Assembly (NCBI GenBank): GCA_041651335.1
Contig: JBAZJL010000002.1
Coordinates: 1-32,000 of the forward strand
Source: Minisyncoccota bacterium
GTDB taxonomy: Bacteria > Patescibacteriota > Minisyncoccia > Minisyncoccales > Minisyncoccaceae
Length of the DNA: 32,000 nucleotides
Direction: 5' to 3'
The notes beneath the pieces are model-generated. The model did not search any database, had not been told where the DNA came from, and worked only from the letters and a program-made list of their open reading frames with translations. Each line of letters begins with the position of its first letter. Position 1 is the first letter of the stretch. The translations under genes were made by a program, and so were the position numbers. Shown piece after piece: positions 1 through 31,480 of this stretch.

Positions 1-3000
1 CTTGATCAGAATATCTATAAAATTGTAAATATTTTTCATAATATCCATTTTGAGAAGCTAGGGTAAAATTAGAAGTAAGGGCGCTACCATCAGATAGAAC
101 CGTAATCGTTGTTCCGTTTGTTCTTAATTCATAAGTATGATTTCCGGGGTAGTTAGTACTATTATAAATAGTTGATCCTGAATTTTCTCCAATAAATAAA
201 TCGGGTGTGCCATCATTTCCTGAAAACGTTGACATATTTTGCATAACATTGATTGAAGTTGAATTGGTTAAATAAAACCCACCATACCACCAAAGACCCT
301 GCCCAGAAGATTCATATTGTTTTGCATAATATCTTACGGCATAACCATTTCTTAAATCATATGCCTGGTTACTTTTTAAATAACAACCAGCATAAGAAGC
401 ATACGCAGAAGATCTAGCAGTAACAACTAATTCTCCGCTGACTATTGAAACAGATCCGCCACTATTAGTCCCTTCGCATGTTGCTGTCCATTTGCTTGTA
501 TTGATAGTGCCTGAATTAAAATCATCGAATAAAACAAATGTATTATCTCCACTGCTGACGCTAACTGCTGAAGCATTGCCATAATAAATATAAATAGTAT
601 TACTACCAGAAGCAAGGCTTGGTGCTTTAACCCAAAAAGTGGCAGTTGAAGAATCTGTTTTTGATTCTAACCAATAACTTAATTCCGTTGTTCCATCTGA
701 AGCAGTAAAACGGATATCATCAAAATCAGCTTGCATGTCAGAGTCATAAGCAACAACCACTTTAACTTGATAATTTGTTAAAGCCGATGATGATGAAACT
801 GTTACTGGTTTTCTTTTTGAATAATTTGTTAACCATGGCGAGCTAGCCGTACATGTCCATGCCCATGGACCAGAACCAGAAACAGCAGAAGCTGTTCCCG
901 CAGAACAAAGATTAGTTGTTGGTGCTATTGAAAATGTTCCACCATTAGATGATCCACAAGTGCCAACACCTACTACAACTATATTCGCCGAACAACTTAC
1001 AGCCAAAGAATCATTGCCAATACAAGTCCAAGTGTAAGTTGTTTCTCCAGTGGTGACAGAAGATGCTGTGCCATAGGTACAAAGATTTGTTGAAGGAGCA
1101 GATGAAAATGATCCGCCATTAGATGATCCACAAGTAGTTTTGTAAGTATAACAAGCTGCGTCTACGCCTGGATTATTAGTACAAGACCAAAGCCAAATAT
1201 TACTCGAAAGATTTAAAGTGGTATTGCTTCCATAAGCACAAAGATTGGTTGAAGGCTGATCTCTTCTCACGGTATTGTGATATGTTCCGCAAGCAACTTT
1301 TGGAGCAGAACAACTAGCTGTTGTTCCCCCGCCAGAACCAGTACATGACCAGGTCCAAGAAGAACCAGCATCAGCAAACGAAGTAAATGTTCCAGTAGCA
1401 CATCTTTCGGCGACTGTATCAATTTCACTAGTTGAAGTATATCCATGAGTATTGGCTGTTCCACAAGAACCATTAACAGATGTTAAATTAGCAGAACAGC
1501 TGGCTGTTGTTCCGCCATTGATTCCATTACAAGTCCAAGTCCAAGGTCCGGTTCCAGAAACAGCAGAAGACGTTCCCGCAGAACAAAGATTAGTTGAGGG
1601 CGCTGTTGAAAATGTTCCACCATTAGATGATCCGCAAACACCGTTAACTGTTCGGCTGGCTGAACAACTAGCTGTTGTTCCCCCGCCAGATCCAGTACAT
1701 GACCAGGTATAAGTTGAAGCATTGGTTGTTACTGATGTTGCGCTTCCCGCAGAACAAAGATTAGTTGCTGGTGCCGTTGAAAATGTTCCACCATTAGATG
1801 ATCCGCAAGTGCCATTAACAGGCACTACTCTAGTCGCTGAACAGTTGACTGCCAAAGAATCATTACCAGTACAAGTCCAAGTATAGGTTGTTTCTCCAGT
1901 AGTGACAGAAGATGCTGTGCCATAAGTACAAAGATTAGCTGAAGGAGCAGACGAAAACGATCCGCCATTAGATGATCCGCAAGTAGTTTTGTAAGTATAA
2001 CAAGCTGCGTCTACGCCTGGATTATTAGTACAAGACCAAAGCCAGACATTACTCGAAAGATTTAAAGTGGTATTGCTTCCATAAGCACAAAGATTGGTTG
2101 AAGGCTGATCTCTTCTCACGGTATTGTGATATGTTCCGCAAGCAACTTTTGGAGCAGAACAACTAGCTGTTGTTCCCCCACTAACCCCAACACAAGACCA
2201 AGACCAAGAAGAGGTATTGTCTGTAAATGATCCGCTAAATGTTCCTGCTGAACATCTTTCCGCGGCTGTATCAATATATGATGTTGCTTGATATCCATGA
2301 GCATTAGCTGTTCCGCAAACACCATTAACTCTACTGCAAATACTAAATGTGCTTATGTTTCCAATCACATATTCACGAATTAAATAAATATCATCAAATT
2401 CTCCATCACCATTTCCATTAACGTCGATTAAATTTAATGGCAATGTTTCTATTTGAGAAAATGCTACTTGCACATCATAATAATTAATAGATCCATTTTG
2501 GCTAGTATCTCCATAAGAACCACAAGGAATTGAACGGCTTAATTGATTAGAGCTACAAGAAGCTGTTGTTCCACCATTAGAGCCTGCACAAGTCCAGCCA
2601 AAGGTTGTTGCATTGGTTGTTACTGAAGAAGCAGTACCTGTATTACAAAGATTAGTTGGCACATCATAAGAAGATTGGCCATTAGCAGAACCGCAAGAGC
2701 CGTTCACTACTATCAATCTAGTTGCCGAACAACTAGCTGTTGTTCCGCCATTTGAACCTACGCAATTCCACGTGTAAGTTGTGTCTCCAGTTGTTACTCC
2801 TGTTTCAGTTCCTTGATAACAAAGATTACTAGAAGGAGCAGAGGTAAATGAACCTCCGCTAGAGGGACCACAAATTCCATCAATTGGTGTGGCGCCCTCA
2901 CCACCCATTAACCAAATCATGTCTGCACCCTCATAAGACACTACCGTATAATAACAAGTTTTACTTGTACCTCCATTGTGTCCACTACAATTAGCAACGC

Positions 3001-3616
3001 CGACGCCAGAAGGCAAATCCAAATTTGTTGTTTGAGTTCCTTTCTTACATATATTCCCCATACATTCGTTTGTAACATATGCGCCTGCATTCTGCGAAAA
3101 AATTGTACCACAAAGGGCGGTTCGCCTAAAAGCCCAGGTCAGGGTGCATTCAGCGTCTATCTTTTTTGGAGCAGAACAACTAGCGGTTCCGGCCCCATTA
3201 GCGCAAGACCAGTTAAAAATAGTTGTATAAGAAATCGGAGAGCCAGTATAAGGCACCTTTATTCCGCTCTCGGTAACACTAGAAGGAGTTCCTGTGTTAC
3301 ATAAAGCAGTTGGCGTGGTATAAGTTGCTACTCCATTAGCTGATCCACAAACAGGAGGTGACTCATAAGTATATGGAGCATAACACGCAACCATTGTTGG
3401 TGTTCCCCCAACACATAGCCACATCCATTGGTCGCCTTCAAGAGTAACTGATCCCGATGATCCGCTACTGCAAAGATTAACTGTTGGCTCTACCGGCCAT
3501 GATTGTTGTGTTGCTGTTCCGCAAGCAGCAGCTAAAACATTCCCACTGCTAAAAAACAAAAATACAAAACAGCTGGCAATAAAGAAAATTTGTTTGAGCT
3601 TGTTATTAAACCACAT
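1..3616 (-). CDS. Large secreted Cys-rich repeat surface protein. The C-terminus lies beyond the window edge (at least 1205 codons visible). It has a signal peptide, about 13 copies of a ~55-aa Cys repeat, a dockerin-like Ca-binding pair, a DUF2341-like domain and a LamG/concanavalin-like region.
   Basis: Not in the ORF track because there is no stop inside the window. The reverse-strand ATG at 3616-3614 opens MWFNNKLKQIFFIASCFVFLFFSSGNVLAAACGT. I read this frame by eye with no stop down to position 2 (...YLQFYRYSDQ), and both ends are in the same phase. No minus-strand sub-ORF in this frame is listed in the track, which is consistent with one open frame. The repeat pattern is NG.CG..NG..F...P..NLC..G..S.V....W.W.C.G..GG.T.SCSA. 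Dockerin-like motifs YGDTSQNGSINYYD and DVNGNGDGEFDD lie at about 2370-2525. The DUF2341-like stretch is RKPVTV...NYQVKVVV...DFDDIRFTASDGTTELSYWLE...FWVKAPSL...IYIYYGN at about 575-840. It is followed by DNTFVLFDDFNSGTINTSKWT. Confidence 0.8.
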   Translation of the reverse strand, partial: MWFNNKLKQIFFIASCFVFLFFSSGNVLAAACGTATQQSWPVEPTVNLCSSGSSGSVTLEGDQWMWLCVGGTPTMVACYAPYTYESPPVCGSANGVATYTTPTALCNTGTPSSVTESGIKVPYTGSPISYTTIFNWSCANGAGTASCSAPKKIDAECTLTWAFRRTALCGTIFSQNAGAYVTNECMGNICKKGTQTTNLDLPSGVGVANCSGHNGGTSKTCYYTVVSYEGADMIWLMGGEGATPIDGICGPSSGGSFTSAPSSNLCYQGTETGVTTGDTTYTWNCVGSNGGTTASCSATRLIVVNGSCGSANGQSSYDVPTNLCNTGTASSVTTNATTFGWTCAGSNGGTTASCSSNQLSRSIPCGSYGDTSQNGSINYYDVQVAFSQIETLPLNLIDVNGNGDGEFDDIYLIREYVIGNISTFSICSRVNGVCGTANAHGYQATSYIDTAAERCSAGTFSGSFTDNTSSWSWSCVGVSGGTTASCSAPKVACGTYHNTVRRDQPSTNLCAYGSNTTLNLSSNVWLWSCTNNPGVDAACYTYKTTCGSSNGGSFSSAPSANLCTYGTASSVTTGETTYTWTCTGNDSLAVNCSATRVVPVNGTCGSSNGGTFSTAPATNLCSAGSATSVTTNASTYTWSCTGSGGGTTASCSASRTVNGVCGSSNGGTFSTAPSTNLCSAGTSSAVSGTGPWTWTCNGINGGTTASCSANLTSVNGSCGTANTHGYTSTSEIDTVAERCATGTFTSFADAGSSWTWSCTGSGGGTTASCSAPKVACGTYHNTVRRDQPSTNLCAYGSNTTLNLSSNIWLWSCTNNPGVDAACYTYKTTCGSSNGGSFSSAPSTNLCTYGTASSVTTGETTYTWTCIGNDSLAVSCSANIVVVGVGTCGSSNGGTFSIAPTTNLCSAGTASAVSGSGPWAWTCTASSPWLTNYSKRKPVTVSSSSALTNYQVKVVVAYDSDMQADFDDIRFTASDGTTELSYWLESKTDSSTATFWVKAPSLASGSNTIYIYYGNASAVSVSSGDNTFVLFDDFNSGTINTSKWTATCEGTNSGGSVSIVSGELVVTARSSAYASYAGCYLKSNQAYDLRNGYAVRYYAKQYESSGQGLWWYGGFYLTNSTSINVMQNMSTFSGNDGTPDLFIGENSGSTIYNSTNYPGNHTYELRTNGTTITVLSDGSALTSNFTLASQNGYYEKYLQFYRYSDQ

Positions 3617-3646
3617 ATTTTTTTAATTATTTTATTTATTGCTTTT

Positions 3647-3713: not shown

Positions 3714-4310
3714 TTATTTTTTGCCAATAAACTGACTGGTAATCACTTGATCAACTACGCCATATTCTTTTGCTTCTTCGGCTGACAGATAAAAATCCCT
3801 ATCCGTGTCTTTGGCAATTTTGCTTAATGGCTGCCCAGTATGTTTTGCTAAGATTTTATTCATTTTTTCTTTTATCTTCAAAATCTGCTTGGCAGTAATT
3901 TCAATTTCCGATGCCTGGCCTTTTACTCCGCCCATTACTTGATGCAATAAAATCTCGGAATTAGGCAAAGCATATCTTTTGCCTTTAGCTCCGGCTGCTA
4001 GAATCAAGGCTCCCATTGATGCAGATAGTCCAATCGAAACGGTTGAAACATCGGGATTGATATATTGCATTGTATCATAAATAGCCAAGCCAGCAGTTAC
4101 TGATCCACCCGGACTATTAATATACATTTGAATATCTTTTTCCGGGTCTTTGCTAGCCAAAAATAATAATTGCGCCACAATTGAATTAGCCATATAATCA
4201 TCCACCACTCCGGCGACTAAAATAATCCTTTCTTTTAACAGCCGGGAATAAATGTCATAAGCTCTTTCCCCGTATTGTGATTTTTCAATAACAGTTGGTA
4301 TCAAGTTCAT
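3714..4310 (-). CDS. clpP: ATP-dependent Clp protease proteolytic subunit ClpP
   Basis: 198 aa. It contains [15 protein letters not shown], the catalytic Ser context [11 protein letters not shown], the His context LLHQVMGG and the Asp context [13 protein letters not shown]. Confidence 0.97.
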
Positions 4311-7166: not shown

Positions 7167-8714
7167 ATGAATTCAATTAAAAAAACTATTCTTTCTCCAA
7201 ATAATAAAAAACAAGACATTATCATTCCTCAAAATGTCTTTTTCTGTATAAACACTTTAAAAGACCACGGTTTTACAGCTTTTATTGTTGGCGGATGTAC
7301 TCGTGATTTTCTTAGAGGAATAGAGCCAAAAGATTGGGATATTGCTACAAGCGCTACCCCAGAACAAATCCAAGAAGTATTTAATAAGTTAAATATTAAG
7401 ACTTTTTATGAAAATAATTTTGGCACAGTTGGCCTGGAATTTTTAAAAAACAAAAAATCAAAATCCGAAAATCAATACGAAATTATTGAAATAACTACCT
7501 ATAGGTCTGAATCTTCTTATTCAGATAGCCGACATCCAGATAAAGTAGCTTGGTCAAAAACCATTGATCAAGACTTAAAAAGAAGAGATTTTACTATTAA
7601 CGCAATTGCCCTATCCCCTTTAAAAAATAAGCAAGAATTTGAAATATTTGACCTATTTAATGGCCAAGAAGACCTAAAAACCCATTTAATTAAAGCTGTA
7701 GGAGACCCAAAAGAAAGATTTAAAGAAGATGCTTTAAGAATGATGCGGGCCATAAGATTTGAAGCCAGCCTGGGAAACAATTGGCAAATTGAAAAAAACA
7801 CTTATCAAGCCATAATCGAGTGCTCAAAAGGATTACAAAAAATATCAACCGAAAGAATCAGAGACGAGTTAAATAAAATAATTATGACAAAAAATGCTGC
7901 CAAAGGCATTGATTCTTTAAGGCAATCTGGACTTTTAAATTATATAATTCCCGAACTTTTAGAAGGCTGTAATATTTCCCAAAACAAACATCATGTTTAT
8001 GATTGTTATAAGCACAACTTAGAATCTCTTGATTATACAGCCAAAAAGGGCTTTAGCTTCCCTATTCGTTTGGCTGCATTGTTGCACGATATTGGAAAAC
8101 CAAGATCAAAACAAGGAACCGGCAAAGAGGCTACTTTTTATAATCATGAAATGATTGGTGCCCGAATGGCCCAAAAAATATTAGAAAGACTGCGCTATCC
8201 CAAAAAAGAATGCGAAAAAATTATTACTTTAGTTCGTTTTCATTTGTTTTATTATAATGTTGACGAAGTAAAAGAAGCATCTATTCGTCGGCTAATAAAC
8301 AATGTTGGAATAGAAAATATAGAAGATTTATTAAAATTAAGAATGGCTGATCGAATTGGAAGCGGATGTCCAAAAGCCGAACCCTACAAACTAAGACATA
8401 TGAAATATATGATTGATAAGGTTTCTCGAGATCCAATTTCTGTAAAAATGTTAAAAATTAATGGCTTAGATTTAATAAAAATTCTAAAAATTGAACCTGG
8501 ACCAAAAATTGGACAAATATTAGATATTTTGTTAGAAGAAGTATTGGATAATCCGAAAAATAATACTAAAAAATACTTACAAAAAAGGGTAAAAGACTTA
8601 GCAAGCTTAAATGAAATTGATTTAATTAAATTATCCAATCAAGCCAAAAAAACTAAACAAACAATGGAAAACAAAGCCAATGAAGAAATAAAAGGAAAAT
8701 ATTGGGTTTGTTAA
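7167..8714 (+). CDS. cca: CCA-adding tRNA nucleotidyltransferase with an HD domain
   Basis: 515 aa. It contains FIVGGCTRDFLRG..DWDIAT and RRDFTINA, plus the HD region AALLHDIGKP. Confidence 0.9.
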   Translation: MNSIKKTILSPNNKKQDIIIPQNVFFCINTLKDHGFTAFIVGGCTRDFLRGIEPKDWDIATSATPEQIQEVFNKLNIKTFYENNFGTVGLEFLKNKKSKSENQYEIIEITTYRSESSYSDSRHPDKVAWSKTIDQDLKRRDFTINAIALSPLKNKQEFEIFDLFNGQEDLKTHLIKAVGDPKERFKEDALRMMRAIRFEASLGNNWQIEKNTYQAIIECSKGLQKISTERIRDELNKIIMTKNAAKGIDSLRQSGLLNYIIPELLEGCNISQNKHHVYDCYKHNLESLDYTAKKGFSFPIRLAALLHDIGKPRSKQGTGKEATFYNHEMIGARMAQKILERLRYPKKECEKIITLVRFHLFYYNVDEVKEASIRRLINNVGIENIEDLLKLRMADRIGSGCPKAEPYKLRHMKYMIDKVSRDPISVKMLKINGLDLIKILKIEPGPKIGQILDILLEEVLDNPKNNTKKYLQKRVKDLASLNEIDLIKLSNQAKKTKQTMENKANEEIKGKYWVC

Positions 8715-8785
8715 GGGCCCGTAATTAAACGGTATAATACTACTTTCGCATAGTAGCGTTAGGAGTTCAATTCTCCTCGGGTCCA
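8715..8785 (+). tRNA. tRNA-Ala (anticodon CGC)
   Basis: Hand-folded cloverleaf. Acceptor GGGCCCG/CGGGTCC includes the G3:U70 Ala identity pair. D stem is ATTA/TAAT. Anticodon stem is CTACT/AGTAG with loop TTCGCAT. T arm is AGGAG-TTCAATT-CTCCT. Discriminator is A and no CCA is encoded. The gene starts on the base after the cca stop codon. Confidence 0.9.
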
Positions 8786-8807
8786 CTTTTTATTATTATG
8801 TCCGCAT

Positions 8808-8875
8808 ATTAAATTATGTGGACATAATATAGAAAAATTTTGTCCAGATTTGTCCACAAACAAATTATCTGGACA
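8808..8875. promoter_or_regulatory. Cluster of DnaA-box-like TGTCC(A/G)CA / TGTGGACA motifs (left cluster)
   Basis: TTGTCCACA at 8850-8858 matches TTATCCACA at 8/9 positions. TTGTCCAGA at 8840-8848 and TGTGGACAT at 8817-8825 each match at 7/9. Weaker TGTCCGCA and CTGGACA motifs are also present. Confidence 0.4.
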
Positions 8876-8879
8876 TTCC

Positions 8880-8950
8880 CGGGATGTAATATAAAGGCAT
8901 TATGCAGGCTTCGGGAGTCTGTAATCTGGGTTCAATTCCCAGCATCCCGA
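8880..8950 (+). tRNA. tRNA-Pro (anticodon CGG)
   Basis: Acceptor is CGGGATG/CATCCCG. Anticodon stem is CAGGC/GTCTG with loop TTCGGGA. T arm is CTGGG-TTCAATT-CCCAG. Discriminator is A and no CCA is encoded. Confidence 0.88.
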
Positions 8951-9265
8951 CCCATTATTTCACTGGGAATTGAAGGCGGAGGGCCGACGGGCCCGAGCCC
9001 GGCCTGACCGAAACTTCACCAGAAGTTTACGCGAAGGCAATTCCCAACATCCCGACCCATTATTTCACTGGGAATTGAAGGCGGAGGGCCGACGGGCCCG
9101 AGCCCGGCCTGAGCGAAACTTCACCAGAAGTTTACGCGAAGGCAATTCCCAGCATCCCGACCCATTATTTCACTGGGAATTGAAGGCAAAGGGCCGACGG
9201 GCCCGAGCCCGGCCTGACCGAAACTTCACCAGAAGTTTACGCGAAGGCAATTCCCAGCATCCCGA
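8951..9265 (+). repeat. Three tandem 105-bp units. Each holds a GC-rich three-helix module plus a copy of the last 18 nt of tRNA-Pro.
   Basis: CAATTCCCAGCATCCCGA occurs at 8933 (inside the tRNA), 9038 (one mismatch), 9143 and 9248, giving a period of 105 bp. The modules lie at 8963-9047, 9068-9152 and 9173-9257. Confidence 0.95.
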
Positions 9266-9324
9266 CCATTAGTTTTGTTGAGAATTAAGGGCAAATGGCC
9301 GATTAAGACCAAGTCAAGGCCTAA

Positions 9325-9395
9325 GGATCCGTAATTTAATGGTAAAATACTGCTTTCACACAGCAGCGACATGAGTTCGATTCTCGTCGGATCCA
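9325..9395 (+). tRNA. tRNA-Val (anticodon CAC)
   Basis: Acceptor is GGATCCG/CGGATCC. D stem is ATTT/AAAT. Anticodon stem is CTGCT/AGCAG with loop TTCACAC. T arm is ATGAG-TTCGATT-CTCGT. Discriminator is A and no CCA is encoded. Confidence 0.9.
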
Positions 9396-9461
9396 CATAA
9401 AAACACTAAAATATGCATAAAAATAGCGTTTTTTGTTAAAATTAATGAATTTTTATTAAAA

Positions 9462-9521: not shown

Positions 9522-10285
9522 ATGTTCCACGTAGAACATATTGATTTTTAGATACCCCTACGTATTTTAGAGACGAATGATTAGCTGTTTCAGACAAAAT
9601 GAAAATATTTTAGAAAACATTTCTCCTAAAAATCATTAATCATTTAAGATGTTGTTTGTTTTATTGTTTAAAAATTAATGATGTTCCACGTGGAACATTC
9701 AATTTTTATGCTCTTAAAACATATGTTTATTGATGATCATGGTTTTGGGACAAAATTACATTTTAAAAAACTTTTGCTTTCCTAAAAATCATTAATCATT
9801 TAAGGTGCTGTTATGTTATTATTCTGTAAAATTACGTGTTCCACGTGGAACATTAATGTTTTTTATAGATTAAAATGCCATATTATTAATCATCTATGTT
9901 TTTAAGGAAAAATGTTTTCTAAAATATTTTCATTTTGTCAAAAATCATTAATCATTTAAAGTGTTATTTGTTTTATTGTCTAAAAATTAATGATGTTCCA
10001 CGTGGAACATTAAACTTATATATACTTAAAACTTACAATCATTGATGATCATGGTTTTGGGACAAAATTACATTTAAAAAAACTTTTGTTTTCCTAAAAA
10101 TCATTAATCATTTAAGGTGCTATTATGTTATTATTCTGTAAAATTACGTGTTCCACGTGGAACATTAATGTTTTTTATAGATTAAAATGCCTTATTATTA
10201 ATCATCTATGTTTTTAAGGAAAAATGCTTTTCAAAATATTTTCATTTTGCCTGAAACAGCTAATCATTCGTCGCTAAAATACGTA
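9522..10285. repeat. AT-rich repeat block with five regularly spaced GTTCCACGTGGAAC palindromes, alternating ~156-bp units (A-B-A-B), bounded by 68-bp inverted repeats
   Basis: Palindromes lie at 9522-9539 (one mismatch), 9681-9698, 9837-9852, 9993-10010 and 10149-10164. The marker AAAAATCATTAATCATTTAA recurs at about 9628, 9783, 9939 and 10095. The inverted repeats at 9559-9626 and 10218-10285 differ at about 6 of 68 positions by my count. Confidence 0.9.
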
Positions 10286-10336
10286 AAAACATAAAATTTT
10301 TAATAAAAAACACTAAATAATCTACTATAGTCTTTA

Positions 10337-10470
10337 TGTGGACATAAAATGTTACTTAAAACAAACATTATGTCCACTAATGTCCACTAAATTTTAATGG
10401 ACAAGGTATGTGGACAATTATGTGGAAAAACAATGATTTATGTGGACAAATCCGGACATATTATTTGGAC
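10337..10470. promoter_or_regulatory. Cluster of DnaA-box-like TGTGGACA / TGTCCAC motifs (right cluster)
   Basis: Three boxes match TTATCCACA at 8/9 on the minus strand: TGTGGACAA at 10409-10417, TGTGGAAAA at 10421-10429 and TGTGGACAA at 10441-10449. TGTGGACAT at 10337-10345 matches 7/9. There are also two TGTCCACTAA motifs at 10371-10390 and weaker GGACA motifs. Confidence 0.4.
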
Positions 10471-17980: not shown

Positions 17981-18021
17981 CCTAATACAAAAGATGGCTC
18001 CATGCCATCTTTTGTATTAGG
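17981..18021 (+). other. Perfect 18-bp hairpin immediately 3' of tRNA-Arg
   Basis: CCTAATACAAAAGATGGC-TCCAT-GCCATCTTTTGTATTAGG. Its 3' arm overlaps the 5' arm of the GC-rich module that follows. Confidence 0.7.
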
Positions 18022-18215
18022 ATTGATTCGAAGCCGGAGGGCCGACGGACCCGAGGCAGGCCCTGAGGAATTTTCAGTAGAAAATTACCGAAGGGCGAAT
18101 CCTGCCGAGATATTTTTGAAGGCGAATCCTGCCGAGATATTTTTGAAGGCGAATCCTGCCGAGATATTTTTGAAGGCGAATCCTGCCGAGATATTTTTGA
18201 AGGCGAATCCTGCCA
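18019..18215 (+). repeat. One GC-rich three-helix module (18019-18103) followed by five tandem 27-bp units that re-copy the module 3' edge and the tRNA-Arg T-arm 3' strand
   Basis: GGCGAATCCTGCCGAGATATTTTTGAA starts at 18094, 18121, 18148, 18175 and 18202 (the last copy is decayed). CGAATCCTGCCG is identical to tRNA-Arg positions 17962-17973. Confidence 0.93.
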
Positions 18216-18359
18216 AAATTCTTTTTAAAAGCAAATTTTTTAGCTTAATAATTCAAATACAAAGCCATAACAACGGCAAACAAAAAATAAACAAGTTTTA
18301 CTAAAATTTTACCCAAAAACAAAAAAATAGTGGATTTAGGCTTTAAGTAGTCTTTTCTC

Positions 18360-18414: not shown

Positions 18415-18852
18415 ATGATTTTTAATAAAAAATTCAAATATTTTTCTTTTCTTAGCCTTCTTTTTTTGGTTTTTGTTTCTTTTCCAATTATTGCTAATGC
18501 TGCCACTTGTCCAACCTGCGACTCAATTGTTTGTTGTGGAAACGAAGGCCAGCCTGCTTGTACTTTAGCGGATTTGTTTTGTTTAATCCAAAGCATAATA
18601 AATTTCATCTTATGGCAAGTAGTTCCGCCATTAATAGTGATTTGGTTTGCTTATGCTGGTTTTTTAATGCTTACCTCTGGAGGAGATCCTGGAAAAACAA
18701 AACAAGCCAAAGACATGGTTACCGCAGCTTTTATTGGAATAATTCTTGTTTATTCTGCTTGGATGTTAGTTTACTGGTTTATCAGCTTTATCGGAGGGCC
18801 AACTCAAAGTAATTGGCTATTGCAGTTTTTTACTACTCAAACCACTCCTTAA
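18415..18852 (+). CDS. Small secreted two-TM pilin-like protein (TrbC/VirB2-like, the pilin type seen in Patescibacteria) with a Cys-rich N-terminus
   Basis: 145 aa. The signal peptide ends IIANA. Six Cys lie in ATCPTCDSIVCCGNEGQPACTLADLFC. Next come TM1, then LTSGGDPGKTKQAKDMVTAAFIGIILVYS, then TM2. The same core is found in the N-termini of the ORFs at 28789-30096 and 30101-31480. Confidence 0.7.
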   Translation: MIFNKKFKYFSFLSLLFLVFVSFPIIANAATCPTCDSIVCCGNEGQPACTLADLFCLIQSIINFILWQVVPPLIVIWFAYAGFLMLTSGGDPGKTKQAKDMVTAAFIGIILVYSAWMLVYWFISFIGGPTQSNWLLQFFTTQTTP

Positions 18853-18884: not shown

Positions 18885-18957
18885 GCCCCGTTAGCTCAGT
18901 TGGTAGAGCAGGAAGCTCTTAACTTCAAGGTCGTGGGTTCGAATCCCTCACGGGGCA
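18885..18957 (+). tRNA. tRNA-Lys (anticodon CTT)
   Basis: Acceptor is GCCCCGT/ACGGGGC. D arm is GCTC-AGTTGGTA-GAGC. The anticodon loop is CTCTTAA. T arm is GTGGG-TTCGAAT-CCCTC, with one T:T mismatch. Discriminator is A and no CCA is encoded. Confidence 0.86.
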
Positions 18958-19411
18958 CAAACGAACACATGACAGGATAGAAAATATTGATTAATTTAAA
19001 ACGCCGATTAACGAAAGAGGGATTCGAAGCCGGAGGGCCGACGGGCCCGAGGCAGGCCTAAGCGAAACTTCACCAGAAGTTTACGCGAAGGCGAAACCTC
19101 ACGGGGCACAAACGAACACATGACAGTATAGAAAATATTGATTAATTTAAAACGCTGATTAACGAAAGAGGGATTCGAAGCCGGAGGGCCGACGGGCCCG
19201 AGGCAGGCCTGAGCGCAATTTCACCAGAAATTGACGCGAGGGCGAAGCCTCACGGGGCACAAACGAACACATGACAGTATAGAAAATATTGATTAATTTA
19301 AAACGCTGATTAACGAAAGAGGGATTCGAAGCCGGAGGGCCGACGGGCCCGAGGCAGGCCTGAGCGCAATTTCACCAGAAATTGACGCGAGGGCGAAGCC
19401 TCACGGGGCAC
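18958..19411 (+). repeat. Three tandem ~151-bp units. Each has a 60-nt AT-rich spacer, a GC-rich three-helix module and a copy of the tRNA-Lys 3' end.
   Basis: CCTCACGGGGCAC occurs at 18945 (in the tRNA), 19097, 19248 and 19399. The modules lie at 19017-19100, 19168-19251 and 19319-19402. Units 2 and 3 look identical. Unit 1 differs by paired substitutions in a hairpin. Confidence 0.95.
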
Positions 19412-27947: not shown

Positions 27948-28811
27948 ATGTCAAGCAATTTTTCCACTGAAAAAACGTTCTTAAATAAGGCCTTTTCTGG
28001 TCCAATTTTAGCTAAAAAATCACTTGGCCAGAATTTTTTACAAGACAAAAATATTATTAATAAAATAATCGCCTCAGCTGGAATCACCAAAAATGATAAT
28101 ATTCTGGAAATTGGGCCAGGCCAAGGGGCTTTAACTTTTTTGTTGGCTTATCATGCAAATAAAGTAATTGCTATTGAAAAAGATGATAATTTAAGCCAAT
28201 TATTAAAAAAAACGATCCAAGATTTAAAAATTAATAATATCGAAGTTTTCAATTCTGATATTATCAAAGAATTAAAACAGGGGAGAGAATCAGAAGCAAT
28301 TAAAAAATTAGGCCGGCATTATCGGGTTATTGCCAATATCCCTTATTATCTTACTGGGCTTTTAATCAGGCTTCTTTTAGAGTCCACTCCTCAGCCAGAA
28401 AACATTACTTTAATGGTCCAAAAAGAAGTGGCACAAAGAATTGTTGAAGCTCCACCAAAAATGAGTCTACTTTCTGTGGCAGTTCAATATTATGCTAATC
28501 CAAAAGTCTTATTTTACGTCTCCAAAACCTGCTTTTGGCCACAGCCCAAAATAGACAGCGCAATCATCAATTTAGAAACTAAAAAATCCCATACTTTAGA
28601 GGCTCAGCTTTTTTTCAAAATTATTAAAGCTGGGTTTTCTTGCCCGCGAAAACAATTATTAAATAACCTATCTTCGGGTTTAAAAATAAGCAAAGAAAAA
28701 TTAAAAAACCGCTTTTTGGAAAACGGTTTTAATCCTTTGCGCCGAGCTGAATCGCTATCAGTAGAAGAATGGGAAAATTTATTAAAAATTATTTACCCGG
28801 CAAAATCGTAA
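27948..28811 (+). CDS. rsmA: 16S rRNA (adenine1518/1519-N6)-dimethyltransferase RsmA/KsgA
   Basis: 287 aa. It contains LGQNFLQD, the SAM motif ILEIGPGQGALT and ANIPYY. Confidence 0.93.
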   Translation: MSSNFSTEKTFLNKAFSGPILAKKSLGQNFLQDKNIINKIIASAGITKNDNILEIGPGQGALTFLLAYHANKVIAIEKDDNLSQLLKKTIQDLKINNIEVFNSDIIKELKQGRESEAIKKLGRHYRVIANIPYYLTGLLIRLLLESTPQPENITLMVQKEVAQRIVEAPPKMSLLSVAVQYYANPKVLFYVSKTCFWPQPKIDSAIINLETKKSHTLEAQLFFKIIKAGFSCPRKQLLNNLSSGLKISKEKLKNRFLENGFNPLRRAESLSVEEWENLLKIIYPAKS

Positions 28812-30096
28812 AATATAAAGGTTTTGTATTTTTTCTATCCTCTATATTATAAACCTTTCCATAGGTAATAGAATTAATACAATTACTTAATCCTTGTTTT
28901 CTAAATAATTGGCAATTCCCATCTTTGTCTTTTAGTAATAAAATAGTTCCTTCACTTATTTTCGCTGACAAAATAGTGTCTCCATCTTGGGGCATTGTTT
29001 CGCAAACTTCAAATTTAAATTCTTTTTGATATTCTGGAACAACGCAATAATTTGGCTCAATAAATGATTTTGTTGAATCATCCCAAATAGAATCTTTTGA
29101 TTCACAATTTGTGCCATTATAAAGCACAACCTCGGAAAGGGGAGTGGCTGGGTCAATTTTTAAAATATAAATAGAAGAAACTTGGCCGATTCCAGAAAAT
29201 TCATCGCTCTCATTAACTCGGACGCTATTTTCTTCGGAATTGTTCGGACTAACTTCGTTTATATTTGATAAATCATTCATTACCCAAGAGCACTTTCCAG
29301 TATAATTATCACCAGAAAAAAGCACGGCCCCATACTTAACAAATCCTTGTTCTGATGGTTGAACTATTTTGATTGATGCGGTTTTTTTATCAAACCCATT
29401 ATTGCCTAAAGCTGGCTGACTATTTAATAAATATAAAGGCGATTTTCTATTATCAAGTTGATAATCAGGGGCATTATAAAGATAAACCCCTGGCCTTTGC
29501 CAATCAAAAGAAATCGAACTGCTTTTGGCAATAAAAATATTGCTTCCGTTCATCACTTCTTGAGGAGTTCCGGAAAAATCTTTTTGCGGGAAAACAAATA
29601 TTCTTGGCAATTCTGATTCGCTGGAAAGCCATTTTATACTAGCTGTATTTTGAGGAACTTCGGTCATATCTCCAGCAATATTCTGTTCTTGCCCATTTTC
29701 GTATTGTAAAATTATTCCTCCGGAATATTGCCCTGGATTCAAGCTTTCTAAGGTATTTTTATTAATTCCGGAATTAATCGTGTTTAAAATCATTATTGAG
29801 CCGAATAAAACAATAAGCCCAACAAAAGATCTTGTTATTTCTCTTTTTGCTTTTTCTATTTTCCCGATTTCTCCCTTGGAAAGAAAATAGGAGATAGCTC
29901 CAAAAATAAGAACAAATGAGGCTGCTACCATTCCAAAAAATAAAGCAAAATTAAAAAAATAAACAAAATAATTAGTAAACGTAGGATTAGCAGGTAAAGA
30001 CACTCCGCCAATTGAAGGATAAGTAATTTCCATTGCCCAAGCATTATTGCTATAAAACAGTCCCAAAATAAATAAAAATAAATTGTTTTTTTCCAT
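28789..30096 (-). CDS. Secreted protein with a pilin-like two-TM N-terminal module and a Cys-containing beta-rich C-terminal domain (paralog A)
   Basis: 435 aa. It has a signal peptide and the core FGAISYFLSKGEIGKIEKAKREITRSFVGLIVLFGSIMILNTIN. The C-terminal motifs are VVLYNGTNC and DGNCQLF. Confidence 0.7.
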   Translation of the reverse strand: MEKNNLFLFILGLFYSNNAWAMEITYPSIGGVSLPANPTFTNYFVYFFNFALFFGMVAASFVLIFGAISYFLSKGEIGKIEKAKREITRSFVGLIVLFGSIMILNTINSGINKNTLESLNPGQYSGGIILQYENGQEQNIAGDMTEVPQNTASIKWLSSESELPRIFVFPQKDFSGTPQEVMNGSNIFIAKSSSISFDWQRPGVYLYNAPDYQLDNRKSPLYLLNSQPALGNNGFDKKTASIKIVQPSEQGFVKYGAVLFSGDNYTGKCSWVMNDLSNINEVSPNNSEENSVRVNESDEFSGIGQVSSIYILKIDPATPLSEVVLYNGTNCESKDSIWDDSTKSFIEPNYCVVPEYQKEFKFEVCETMPQDGDTILSAKISEGTILLLKDKDGNCQLFRKQGLSNCINSITYGKVYNIEDRKNTKPLYFTILPGK

Positions 30097-30100
30097 AAAT

Positions 30101-31480
30101 TTAATCTATTGGCAAAAATTCAAAAATATCAGGATTGCTAACGCTAGTTTCTAAAATTGAACAAACGCAATTACCAGAACAAAAATCTTTTTTATCAAAA
30201 TATTGACATTTATTCCCTTCAACTAAAACCACGCCGACAGGGCCATTAATTTTAAATGATTTTATTTTAAAGTCTTGGCCACAAGCTGAATCTAAATAAA
30301 TTCCCCAAGGATTTTCATAAATTTCTTGTTCGCAAGATTTTTGTTCGGGATCGCTTTCGTTTTTTTGACAATTAAGAGTATTATAAAAAGTTACTGTCCC
30401 ACTTACTTCCGTGCTTCCTGTTGTAGTGTATTTAAAAGCAATGGCTGAGCTTACATTATAGCCAAAAGGAATTAATGGCTTGCCTAATTGTCCCTCTTGA
30501 TTCAAATCAGAAAATCCAGTCCCGGTTCCTCCAGTTGGAAAAAACTCCAAACATGTTCCTCTAAATTCAGGCTCGGAAAAAAATACTGCTCCGGGCGTAG
30601 TTCCTAAAAATCCAACATGATTTTCTGGATCGGCTATAGTAAATCGCGGGGCAATAATTTGAACTGATTGAGTTTTATGAAAAAAATTAGGATTAGTTTT
30701 AGAAAAATCATTAACACTGCCTGTTAAGAAAAATGGAGAAATCGACCCATCGCCAACTTCAAAATTAGGCTTGTCGTATAAATAAATTCCTTCTCTTTTT
30801 TCAATTATTTTATAAGATTTTAACTTTGTGCCATCAACAGTTGGACTAAGTGCTAAGTCTTTTACTTCTGCTTCGGGATTAGCTGGATCAGGAAAAAGCT
30901 TAATCGGCGACCCTTTAAAGCCAGATTCAACAAATCCCCAAATTTCTTTTAAGCCATCGTATTTTGTAATCACAATACTTTCTCCTTCTTGTAATACTAA
31001 ATTATCATTAGCCATTGGAATAGACATTTCCAACGTTGTTTTTGCCTTTTCATTTATTATTTTCGTAACTGTTACGCAGATTGGAACGTCTTTGCATTCT
31101 ATTGCTTTGATTGGAGTATTAACTAAAGATTTATTAACCGTATTTAAGATTAAATGGCAAGAAAATAAAACAATCAAACCCACAAAAGCTCCCAAGGCTT
31201 GATTTCTGGCTGAGCTTATTTTCGTGGGTATTCCTCCACTGTTTAAAAAATTAAAACCAGCCATTACCAAAACAATAAATGCGATTATCGCTCCTAGGCT
31301 CACTAAAACATAAAACATATAAACAACATACTGGTCTGGGGTAGATTCATCGGTAATGGTTATTTTTTGGCCATCGATGGTTGTTATTTCCGGATATTGA
31401 GTTTCCAAAGCAGAGCAGGGCTGGATTAAAAAAACTGCTAATAATAAAACTCCGAAAATAATTATTGATGTTTTTTTCAT
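30101..31480 (-). CDS. Secreted protein with a pilin-like two-TM N-terminal module and a Cys-containing beta-rich C-terminal domain (paralog B)
   Basis: 459 aa. It has a signal peptide and the core MAGFNFLNSGGIPTKISSARNQALGAFVGLIVLFSCHLILNTVN. The C-terminal motifs are VTFYNTLNC, GNKCQYF and SGNCVC. Confidence 0.7.
   Translation of the reverse strand: MKKTSIIIFGVLLLAVFLIQPCSALETQYPEITTIDGQKITITDESTPDQYVVYMFYVLVSLGAIIAFIVLVMAGFNFLNSGGIPTKISSARNQALGAFVGLIVLFSCHLILNTVNKSLVNTPIKAIECKDVPICVTVTKIINEKAKTTLEMSIPMANDNLVLQEGESIVITKYDGLKEIWGFVESGFKGSPIKLFPDPANPEAEVKDLALSPTVDGTKLKSYKIIEKREGIYLYDKPNFEVGDGSISPFFLTGSVNDFSKTNPNFFHKTQSVQIIAPRFTIADPENHVGFLGTTPGAVFFSEPEFRGTCLEFFPTGGTGTGFSDLNQEGQLGKPLIPFGYNVSSAIAFKYTTTGSTEVSGTVTFYNTLNCQKNESDPEQKSCEQEIYENPWGIYLDSACGQDFKIKSFKINGPVGVVLVEGNKCQYFDKKDFCSGNCVCSILETSVSNPDIFEFLPID

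Follow-up and report, generated by a model that had tools for sequence, protein, structure and literature searches.

The stretch of DNA analyzed here, referred to as the window (32,000 nt of contig JBAZJL010000002.1 from a Minisyncoccota bacterium, with coordinates on the plus strand), carries seven copies of a short structured repeat that we call a module. Three copies follow tRNA-Pro, one follows tRNA-Arg, and three follow tRNA-Lys; a 20-nt GC-rich core sequence (GGAGGGCCGACGGGCCCGAG) occurs in the window seven times, against zero occurrences expected. Each module folds as a three-way junction composed of a closing helix (P1) and the helices P2 and P4, and the two strands of P1 are taken from the tRNA that the module follows: the 5' arm is the reverse complement of the T-loop and 3' strand of the T-stem, whereas the 3' arm is a forward copy of the same tRNA that begins at T-loop position C56 and usually runs to the discriminator. 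Since one arm is inverted and the other is direct, the two together constitute an inverted repeat. We put forward, tentatively and as just short of probable, the reading that the modules are a non-autonomous structured repeat that colonizes hairpins and whose arms are templated locally.

Modules in the window

The tRNA genes concerned, their modules, and the associated repeats are as follows. Bit scores of the modules refer to our covariance model, R1; tandem repeats were called with Tandem Repeats Finder (TRF).

8880..8952, plus strand: tRNA-Pro (CGG), by ARAGORN and the Rfam tRNA model (57.4 bits); C56 is position 8933, and TTCAATTCCCAG, the T-loop plus 3' T-stem, is at 8931-8942
8963..9057, plus strand: Pro module 1, with 5' arm 8963-8974, core 8975-9037, and 3' arm 9038-9057; 99.7 bits
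9068..9162, plus strand: Pro module 2, with 5' arm 9068-9079, core 9080-9142, and 3' arm 9143-9162; 107.4 bits, also by TRF
9173..9267, plus strand: Pro module 3, with 5' arm 9173-9184, core 9185-9247, and 3' arm 9248-9267; 98.3 bits
17907..17982, plus strand: tRNA-Arg (TCG), by ARAGORN and Rfam
17981..18021, plus strand: terminator-like perfect hairpin CCTAATACAAAAGATGGC...GCCATCTTTTGTATTAGG between tRNA-Arg and its module, read from the sequence
18019..18107, plus strand: Arg module, with 5' arm AGGATT[GATT]CGAA 18019-18032, core 18033-18095, and 3' arm CGAATCCTGCCG 18096-18107; 84.9 bits, also by its fold
18094..18214, plus strand: 27-nt unit GGCGAATCCTGCCGAGATATTTTTGAA, 4.5 copies, by TRF with 100% matches
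18885..18958, plus strand: tRNA-Lys (CTT), by ARAGORN and Rfam; TTCGAATCCCTC is at 18938-18949, and C56 is position 18940
19017..19109, plus strand: Lys module 1, with 5' arm 19017-19028, core 19029-19091, and 3' arm CGAAACCTCACGGGGCAC 19092-19109; 95.4 bits, fold z = -5.0
19168..19260, plus strand: Lys module 2, with 5' arm 19168-19179, core 19180-19242, and 3' arm 19243-19260; 93.2 bits, also by TRF at period 151
19319..19411, plus strand: Lys module 3, with 5' arm 19319-19330, core 19331-19393, and 3' arm 19394-19411; 93.2 bits, followed by native flank

The tandem arrays have a period of 105 at tRNA-Pro and of 151 at tRNA-Lys, and what is reiterated is a block composed of the 3' part of the tRNA, the spacer, the 5' arm, and the core. 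The 3' arm of Pro module 1 copies the tRNA from C56 with a single G-to-A change at 9047, and the minimum-energy fold of this module is the three-way junction (z = -4.8); Pro module 3 has AAA in place of GGA in the internal loop of P2, and the native flank is back from 9268. Lys module 2 differs from Lys module 1 by compensatory changes in P4.

The Arg module carries one G-to-A change, in the inner stem of P2, and its 3' arm ends within the acceptor strand; the orthologous Arg module in comparison sequence L008 has the identical architecture. The terminator-like hairpin in front of it shares 3 nt with the 5' arm and was the source of spurious miRNA-hairpin matches in the Rfam search. Comparable hairpins stand between tRNA and module in L004, L007, L008, L016, L021, and L054. 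The 27-nt unit reiterates no more than the final nucleotides of P4, the 3' arm of the Arg module, and 10 nt of the flank, and it could be a product of slippage or of repeated abortive insertion at the G|C56 junction.

Two open reading frames (ORFs) of 100 aa span module regions (8970-9272 and 18002-18304). We rejected a protein-coding role, since the ORFs are repeat artifacts, the 151-nt period is not a multiple of 3, and the substitutions are pairwise compensatory.

The arms follow the adjacent tRNA

A first-pass annotation of this DNA had proposed that the 5' arm is the reverse complement of the T-loop plus 3' T-stem of the preceding tRNA, and this is exact in all seven modules. At tRNA-Pro, CTGGGAATTGAA (8963-8974, 9068-9079, and 9173-9184) is the reverse complement of TTCAATTCCCAG at 12/12 positions, and at tRNA-Lys, GAGGGATTCGAA (starting at 19017, 19168, and 19319) likewise matches TTCGAATCCCTC at 12/12. 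The Arg tRNA has TTCGAATCCTGC; leaving out the 4-nt GATT duplication, the arm fits positions 54-63 at 10/10, and the ungapped match is 8/8. The same annotation did not include the feature at the other end of the module, where every copy finishes with the forward copy of the tRNA: CAATTCCCAGCATCCCGACC at Pro, CGAA(A/G)CCTCACGGGGCAC at Lys, and CGAATCCTGCCG at Arg.

Because T-loops are nearly universal in sequence, the relevant comparison is with the tRNAs of other modules. We compared 38 non-redundant pairs of module and tRNA, drawn from 28 sources. Within the T-stem part, the arm agrees with its cognate tRNA at 3.58 of 5 positions, whereas 2000 permutations of the tRNAs gave a mean of 2.56 and a maximum of 2.97; for the T-loop part, the values are 6.29 of 7 and 5.56 when permuted. 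The T-stem part therefore tracks the cognate tRNA beyond what the near-universal T-loop would provide.

The Pro loop had been taken as decisive evidence that the arm is a complement and not a forward copy, and that argument generalizes. Where T-stems contain G.U pairs or mismatches, the arm follows the reverse complement of the 3' strand in nine cases and the 5' strand in two, which marks it as a templated inverted copy and not as a copy of the 5' strand of the T-stem or the outcome of slow compensatory drift. These tRNAs with non-Watson–Crick T-stems also led us to reject gene conversion from the 5' strand.

The boundaries of the copied segments are regular. Counted from U54, the 5' arm is perfectly complementary over a modal 12 nt, which takes it to the end of the T-stem, and the 3' copy is perfectly identical over a modal 19-20 nt, which takes it to the discriminator plus one. 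In essentially all tRNA-linked modules, the 3' arm starts at C56. In the Lys modules, the arm matches the real tRNA better (12 pairs) than it matches its in-unit partner (8 pairs), as first noted; elsewhere this does not carry over, for most loci have a perfect copy within the unit.

A side observation concerns tRNAs with a TTCGAGT T-loop (L014:1559, L052:112, L047:5605, L049:908, and L011:4075), where some 5' arms read ...GACGAGAA, the exact complement being ...GACTCGAA. The central CGAG is direct in these arms, not inverted, and against the CGAG of the 3' arm it would give a tandem G.A motif like those of P2 and P4.

A covarying three-way junction

The conserved core is approximately 66 nt in length and consists of AA, P2, NGG, and P4. 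In P1, the 5' and 3' arms pair over approximately 10 bp and leave unpaired the two A's complementary to U54/U55. P2 is built from a 3-bp helix (NNC/GNN), a GGA/GA internal loop, a 5-bp helix, and a GACG tetraloop, and a linker of N-G-G joins it to P4, a variable hairpin of approximately 13 bp that has a bulged A and in most cases a tandem G.A motif, and whose last G stacks directly on C56. Single modules have this three-way junction as their minimum-energy state, with z from -3.2 to -5.0.

In a MAFFT alignment of 34 modules (A1), unbiased by the covariance model, 90.9% of the cells are paired and 25 of the 31 pairs have changed on both sides, a result reached by none of 500 shuffles; when the partners are slid by 1 to 3 columns, paired cells fall to 23.6-55.9%. 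The 60 distinct sequences recovered by the covariance model give 91.3% paired cells and compensatory change in 30 of 31 pairs, in an alignment that is fitted to the model. The inner stem of P2 alone includes GGGCC/GGCCC, GCAAC/GUUGC, GCCGC/GCGGC, GCCAC/GUGGC, GGCGC/GCGCC, GCUGU/ACAGC, and AGUCC/GGACU. Around these stems, the unpaired AA, GGA/GA, GACG tetraloop, and NGG, together with the G preceding C56, are near invariant. This combination of covarying stems and fixed unpaired nucleotides is the hallmark of a structure under selection that has a specific ligand or activity.

The helices are nearly pure Watson–Crick, with 8 G.U against 5 A.C in approximately 1200 internal cells, and the usual RNA strand asymmetry is therefore absent; a strand assignment from these counts is uninformative. 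Such helices are compatible with recent templated copying or with a constraint at the DNA level. Two tertiary contacts were considered and rejected: a pseudoknot of the P2 GGGCC with the GGCC before P4, where GGCC changes to GUAC or GUCC without compensation, and a pairing of the P4 loop ACCA with the junction GG, which shows no covariation.

In two modules (L056:5056-5159 and L026:2728-2831), a perfect palindrome built from the start of the core in inverted form takes the place of the 5' half of P2 (CTCCGCC-AATT-GGCGGAG and CCGCC-AGCT-GGCGG). The perfect inverted duplication within P2 of L056:5056 is CTCCGCCAATTGGCGGAG, with a similar one in L026:2728, and it seems to be a recurrent rearrangement in this family.

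Distribution of the modules

A core pattern was scanned against GTDB species genomes and JGI metagenomes, and the matches fall almost only in Paceibacterota/Patescibacteria contigs; those in Streptomyces and Acidobacteria, GC-rich and within genes, were set aside as chance. With covariance model R1, we obtained 88 matches, of which 62 are distinct, from 33 sources. These comparison sequences (designated L followed by a number) are mostly metagenome-assembled genomes (MAGs) or metagenome contigs, so tandem copy numbers are possibly mis-assembled, and several of the loci share the same samples.

In this census, 49 of the 62 distinct modules lie no more than 300 nt downstream of a tRNA on the same strand, and their arms follow the local tRNA. 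The tRNA classes amount to approximately 20 anticodons, namely, Pro, Lys, Arg (three), Ala (two), Thr, Val, Ser (three), Leu (three), Gln, His, Ile (two), Cys, and Gly, so that the idea of one conserved core with variable, tRNA-matched arms holds well beyond the window and across many assemblies. The remaining 13 modules have no upstream tRNA; copies away from tRNA genes were what the first-pass annotation had named as grounds for refuting its proposal, and in part they contradict it.

Beside the seven copies in the 32-kb window, at least nine are present in one MAG. The distance from tRNA to module is 10-125 nt, often with a terminator-like hairpin in between. Cores can be identical at different tRNAs, with unrelated spacers, and no conserved motif was found upstream of the 5' arm among the modules compared.

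No true module copy was found in IMG/VR, where the sole pattern match is a chance match in a GC-rich coding region without a tRNA, and a phage origin was rejected. When the window was searched against Rfam 15, only its five tRNAs scored at the gathering threshold, and in the module regions, up to E of 10, there were only chance matches of 10-28 bits to unrelated eukaryotic families. In the searchable literature, we found no description of tRNA-armed modules in Patescibacteria.

Occupied and empty sites

The block plsY, tRNA-Arg, pilin, tRNA-Lys, and rpsO is syntenic in the window, L008, L026, and L001, and the number of modules at the orthologous tRNA-Lys is three, zero, two, and one, respectively; these loci differ in spacer and partly in core variant. 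Likewise, the syntenic tRNA clusters of L011 and L014 have modules after different tRNAs. The Lys array lies upstream of the gene for ribosomal protein S15, and one might therefore suspect rpsO autoregulation, a candidate that we rejected because L008 has the same gene order without modules.

Truncated copies, from either the 5' or the 3' side, are common. Examples are the second Arg module of L008, cut after P2; a lone 5' arm in L014; fragments consisting of P4 plus the 3' arm in L054 and L045; and the 27-nt repeat of the window.

Approximately 7 of the 13 modules without a tRNA have arms that form the stem of some other hairpin, namely, a REP-like hairpin, the T-arm of a partial copy of a tRNA, a T-arm in antisense, or P2 of another module. 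A subtype, here called type X, has its own 5' hairpin (CUUGAUUG-UAAUC-AAUCAAG) and no tRNA-derived 5' arm, and keeps the core and the closing helix. REP-like hairpins (CATGTTTAGGGG...CCCCTAAACATG), which are found unoccupied as well, carry type-X copies in their loops; another copy occupies the T-loop of a partial tRNA-Arg(GCG) that lies directly upstream of the intact gene (L045:6678), and a further one is in a T-arm in antisense orientation (L028:5568). In L016, one is nested within P2 of a type-B module, and this type-B module has an uninterrupted twin in L004, from the same MAG. Taken together, the module family looks dispensable or mobile.

Two simple schemes were tried for the junctions. 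A target-site duplication fits L026 and was rejected for the loci where a terminator-like hairpin separates the copies, and for Arg; a 4-bp CGAA duplication flanking the core fits TTCGAA loops only and is excluded by the Pro loop. In L026, the tandem units have different spacers.

Several repeats were observed around these sites. The REP-like family (CATGTTTAGGGG-loop-CCCCTAAACATG) is scattered between genes in L006, L024, L028, L045, and L053 (e.g., in L006 just downstream of 132-222, minus strand), and some members have type X in the loop; tandem half-copies (AATGTTTAGGGGCTTGATTG twice) occur at the left junction. In L001, another repeat family, GCAGTAATTAGTAGTTTGTAGTTTGTAATTAGGGTAAGGAAATTATTAGGATA...AAATTTGCTCCCAAAGTAC, follows tRNA-Arg and tRNA-Lys (2824-3060 and 4078-4200), and at tRNA-Lys it separates the tRNA from the module. 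In one MAG, terminator-like hairpins follow both tRNA-Thr and tRNA-Gln (L004 3625-3670 and L016 approximately 300-255, minus strand); their feet are identical at 17 of 18 nt (CATTCATA(A)TGAAAAGACC ... GGTCTTTTCAT(T)ATGA), and their tops differ. The hairpin may be part of the repeated unit and not of the tRNA gene.

A proposed hairpin-colonizing repeat

In all copies, the core is in the loop of a hairpin, and the stem of that hairpin is the closing helix of the three-way junction. The common form has as its 3' strand the forward tRNA duplicate, and as its 5' strand the inverted copy of positions 54-65. Since the arms are the stem of the occupied hairpin, they match the tRNA where there is one, vary with it, and in non-tRNA copies are unrelated yet complementary. 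The 5' arm would therefore be complementary to the tRNA as the stem partner of a duplicated tRNA segment, rather than as a guide in trans. The first-pass annotation had likened this arm to a guide or target-recognition segment; because its usual partner is the module's own 3' arm, with which it closes the covarying junction, that interpretation is only partly supported.

We suggest that the core spreads between loci through a trans-acting activity, template switching, or gene conversion, and that the arms are templated at the new site, the simplest route being fold-back (snap-back) synthesis that starts where the DNA is nicked or broken at U55|C56. Once a donor core had been copied, fold-back synthesis from the U55|C56 3' end would give the reverse complement of positions 56-65, then AA, the core, and the tRNA from position 56 onward. 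Arrays could then grow or shrink by unequal recombination of the tRNA 3' end with its duplicate, or through further insertions at C56 each time that site is regenerated. Mobility would be the cause of the pattern, and any effect on the tRNA would be incidental.

Several points weigh against this proposal and should be kept in mind. Neither an enzyme nor a mobilization intermediate has been identified, and no insertion was caught with both junctions unambiguous; L026 has its trailer duplicated on both sides, yet allelic recombination also explains this. The 5' arm stops at the end of the T-stem, whereas the 3' copy runs on, unpaired, through the acceptor strand. These boundaries are exactly what an alternative fold with the real tRNA needs, which hints at selection for an interaction at the RNA level. 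Moreover, some modules are kept at orthologous tRNAs across assemblies with compensatory changes (e.g., Ala-TGC, Ile-GAT, Thr-TGT, and Arg-TCG), so they persist under structural selection, which is compatible with a host function. Finally, the invariant unpaired nucleotides call for a specific ligand or a catalytic role.

Alternative explanations

The same arm boundaries are the starting point for reading the module as a cis-acting RNA device on the linked tRNA, a switch for maturation, stability, quality control, or 3' tRNA fragments. We consider this unlikely and rank it second. The 5' arm would invade the T-loop and T-stem while the downstream copy replaced the 3' strands of the T-stem and acceptor, and the module would become a giant T-loop insertion within a tRNA-like fold, a picture that we likewise hold to be doubtful. 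The predicted minimum-energy fold of tRNA-Pro with module 1 (8880-9062) is indeed strand-exchanged: the 5' strands of the acceptor and T-stem are predicted to pair with the downstream copy, and the real T-loop and 3' T-stem strand with the Pro 5' arm over 12 bp, including AA with U54-U55. The same exchange is predicted for tRNA-Lys and its module. In minimum-energy folds of 38 loci, the acceptor 5' strand is predicted to pair with the downstream copy in 30 and the 5' arm with the real T-arm in 19, with a calculated gain of 2-16 kcal/mol over separate folds. With these arm lengths, no nucleotide is left over in the exchanged fold (a 12-nt arm pairs 54-65, and the copy reaches the discriminator), modules are almost always downstream on the tRNA strand, and orthologous copies are conserved with covariation.

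On the other hand, terminator-like hairpins divide tRNA from module at many loci, including Arg in the window, so co-transcription is not assured; the tRNA is also transcribed first, and co-transcriptional folding would favor it. The nearest-neighbor energies leave out tertiary structure and modifications of the tRNA. Close relatives have no module at the same tRNA, tRNA-Ala and tRNA-Val of the window have none, some copies have no tRNA at all, and many 3' arms are too short for the alternative fold (e.g., Arg, Thr, and Gln). An earlier suggestion that a co-transcribed module might compete with T-arm folding is thus supported by the predicted folds and weakened at several loci by the hairpins in between.

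The near-invariant unpaired core and covarying stems are ribozyme-like, and they invite the idea of a mobile element at the RNA level: a "T-loop intron", either a small ribozyme or assisted by protein, that brings along a copy of the 3' exon. We regard this as rather improbable. The arm would pair with 54-65 as an internal guide, and strand exchange at U55|C56 would regenerate the upstream tRNA, in analogy to attP x attB, followed by reverse transcription and recombination, a sequence of steps to which we give little weight. It is equally a long shot that the core is a new small catalytic or enzyme-recruiting RNA that integrates at T-loops, with the host tRNA regenerated through the copy of its own 3' end, and so is a harmless mobile "T-loop intron". 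Were integration to occur in this way, tandem arrays could give unit-length or circular RNAs. The invariant junction with an invariant G just before C56 would suit such an element, as would the ending of most 3' copies at the mature tRNA 3' end (19-20 nt), the availability of the three-helix fold in either register of a tandem array, and targets that are hairpin loops, accessible in RNA. However, up to E of 10, there is no likeness to self-cleaving or self-splicing families in Rfam, the window has no reverse transcriptase nearby, and the near-lack of G.U pairs is unusual in a fold selected as RNA. Taken alone, this reading leaves unexplained how the arms acquire a new template when the tRNA species changes, and catalytic activity is a hypothesis only.

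A direct repeat of a tRNA from T-loop to 3' end is the classic mark of tRNA-targeting integrases. The modules could accordingly be footprints of site-specific integration at the T-loop, that is, miniature elements without an integrase that are mobilized in trans, with attL in the tRNA, attR as the displaced 3' end, and arrays formed by accretion; we find this very unlikely. The direct repeat is present, the block of identity often ends at the tRNA 3' end, the tandem units of L026 differ in spacer, and the nearly identical hairpin feet after two tRNAs (L004/L016, 17 of 18) suggest that a spacer may travel with the element. Yet units of 105-151 bp are far below any att-flanked element, only the core, and not the spacer, is common to different tRNAs, and stems that covary with free change of sequence argue against binding sites for a sequence-specific double-stranded DNA-binding protein. 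The inverted 5' arm is left unexplained, there is no integrase in the window, and hairpin loops outside tRNAs also take insertions, as does P2 in the nested copy. The first-pass annotation had offered a recombination half-site as an alternative for the 5' arm, which comes closer than the guide; the fixed U55|C56 junction and the att-like duplication of the tRNA 3' end agree with it, and the lack of a linked recombinase and the inverted nature of the arms do not.

The least credible reading, a trans-acting guide whose 5' arm directs the module RNA or a bound effector to mature tRNAs, can point to perfect complementarity to the cognate tRNA, including 2 bp (AA:U54U55) beyond the in-unit partner, but the arm is predicted to be sequestered in the closing helix of the isolated module, the target is buried in the T-arm/elbow of a folded, modified tRNA, the same core is retained by modules whose arms do not derive from a tRNA, and no effector gene is linked in the window.

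Implications for annotation and tRNA biology

If this description holds, a conserved core is transplanted between loci and its closing stem is re-templated from the local T-arm, with one arm inverted and one direct, an arrangement that we did not find in Rfam, IMG/VR, or the searchable literature. Copying would then be tied to a single phosphodiester in what is biology's most conserved loop, be it by fold-back synthesis, a single-strand transposase, or strand exchange at the RNA level. Should the predicted re-pairing of the tRNA precursor take place, it would be a new route for a selfish element or a regulator into tRNA biogenesis, in hosts with minimal RNA processing. The invariant GGA/GA-GACG hairpin offers a handle for finding a partner protein. 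For those who annotate Patescibacteria MAGs, we recommend that partial tRNA copies beside tRNAs are not automatically read as att sites of a prophage or island.

Genomic setting of the window

ARAGORN and Rfam agree on five tRNA genes in the window, all on the plus strand. The two not listed above have no module, according to ARAGORN and the covariance model:

8715-8786, plus strand: tRNA-Ala, by ARAGORN and Rfam
9325-9396, plus strand: tRNA-Val, by ARAGORN and Rfam

None of the five encodes CCA, and a gene for the CCA-adding enzyme (7167-8714, with PolyA_pol head, HD, and tRNA_NucTran2_2 domains) ends 1 base before tRNA-Ala. The genes of the window are ordinary housekeeping genes of a small AT-rich genome, including those for ClpP, trigger factor, NusA, the CCA-adding enzyme, PlsY, DegV, a T4SS-type pilin, S15, and PNPase, and its nearest public sequences are Paceibacterota MAGs. 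No reverse transcriptase, integrase, or transposase was found among the genes of the 32-kb window. T4SS-pilin/TrbC-like domains are present in three genes: the small pilin between tRNA-Arg and tRNA-Lys (18415-18852) and two genes within 28789-31480 (minus strand), of 435 and 459 aa, with weak pilin matches.

A long gene on the minus strand occupies positions 1-3620. It encodes an internally repetitive, Cys-/Gly-rich secreted protein whose signal peptide starts near 3612, and it continues past the window edge. The ORF-free look and higher GC of the window start are due to this gene; a non-coding RNA in the first 3.6 kb was therefore rejected.

DnaA-box-like 9-mers (TTGTCCACA / TGTGGACAA) number 11 in the window against 4.7 expected, and 7 of the 11 lie within two clusters, at 8790-8870 and 10330-10470, which flank tRNA-Pro with its modules and tRNA-Val. 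The cumulative GC skew has its minimum at approximately 7-10 kb, and these clusters may mark a replication origin. Between them is a tandem repeat of 156/312 bp (9624-10268, 22-24% GC), every unit of which contains the perfect palindrome GTTCCACGTGGAAC; a related copy is at 9524-9537.

Comparison with known systems

The module family fails defining tests of the families that we considered, with REP/REPIN elements as a less clear-cut case. Integrative elements that target tRNAs and are flanked by att sites, including integrase-less elements that can be mobilized in cis, share with it a direct tRNA repeat from the crossover loop, an intact tRNA upstream with a displaced partial copy downstream, and tandem accretion at the same tRNA. 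They differ in that the module units measure 105 and 151 bp with no recombinase in the 32-kb window, only the structured core is shared while spacers are unrelated, an inverted tRNA copy is on the other side, and the loops of unrelated hairpins are used.

Small GC-rich palindromic repeats include the mobile GC clusters of yeast mitochondria, and in Neurospora, such palindromes are cited as flanking mitochondrial tRNA genes (PMC4478555). Like the mitochondrial GC clusters and REP/BIME/REPIN elements, the modules are short, GC-rich, hairpin-forming, multi-copy intergenic repeats in an AT-rich genome, patchy and in some cases beside tRNAs, and their stems, like those of GC-rich palindromic repeats, are nearly pure Watson–Crick. 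REPs are described as a fixed sequence with a terminal GTAG or CGTC tag (PMC3733652). In the modules, by contrast, nothing is fixed but one tetraloop and the unpaired nucleotides, the helices meet in a three-way junction, and the adjacent tRNA is the source of the outer stem. They have no terminal tag, although GACG (CGTC on the other strand) is invariant in the P2 tetraloop, and there is no RAYT in the window. MITEs resemble the modules in small size, GC-richness, hairpin form, and patchy presence, but their terminal inverted repeats common to the whole family and their target-site duplication of fixed length are missing: each tRNA has different inverted arms, the length of the direct duplication varies from 9 to >45 nt, and type-X copies show neither.

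Theta/HDV-like (hepatitis delta virus) ribozymes adjoin phage tRNAs (PMC10879173), and as in the modules, a small structured RNA then lies 3' of a tRNA; the module ending, "...GG-CGAA-helix strand", superficially resembles J4/2-P2. HDV-like ribozymes form a nested double pseudoknot, with a 7-bp P1 whose 5' strand begins at the cleavage site, P1.1, a short L3, and a catalytic C in J4/2. We rejected an HDV-like fold because there is no P1 or P1.1, the topology differs, and CGAA is the duplicated T-loop. The gap between P2 and P4 is only N-G-G (3-4 nt) with no 3' strand of P1, the 19-nt "L3" is a covarying hairpin, and the C of CGAA pairs with the 5' arm; no HDV-type Rfam match was found in the module regions. 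A hammerhead (CUGA...GAA) was rejected since the motif lies within the P4 helix as a tandem G.A and is Watson–Crick in L004, L047, and L054, and the junction strands are AA, NGG, and none, not CUGANGA...GAAA. Twister, pistol, and hatchet gave no covariance-model signal and were rejected, and no other Rfam 15 family examined (HDV-F-prausnitzii, twister-sister, tmRNA, and group I/II intron domains) came near its gathering score.

Archaeal intron-containing and split tRNAs and the intervening sequences of bacterial rRNA also place a structured insert in the hairpin loop of a functional RNA, and the alternative fold of tRNA and module would be a T-loop intron with pairing flanks. Unlike in the archaeal cases, the tRNA upstream of a module is complete, there is no bulge-helix-bulge at the junctions, and the interrupted copy is partial. 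The msr-msd of retrons resembles the module in its closing stem of terminal inverted repeats, conserved hairpin, and long variable hairpin; a retron, however, has a single msr-msd locus beside its reverse transcriptase gene, whereas modules are present in dozens of copies per genome, are approximately 90 nt, and are provided with tRNA-derived arms, with no reverse transcriptase in the window. Nor do modules follow the integron attC consensus (R''/R' core sites RYYYAAC ... GTTRRRY around an imperfect hairpin beside cassette ORFs), for the arms derive from the T-arm (...ATTCGAA / CGAAT...) and the units contain no ORFs. The modules apparently represent an undescribed family of small GC-rich structured repeats that is confined, so far as seen, to some Paceibacterota (Patescibacteria).

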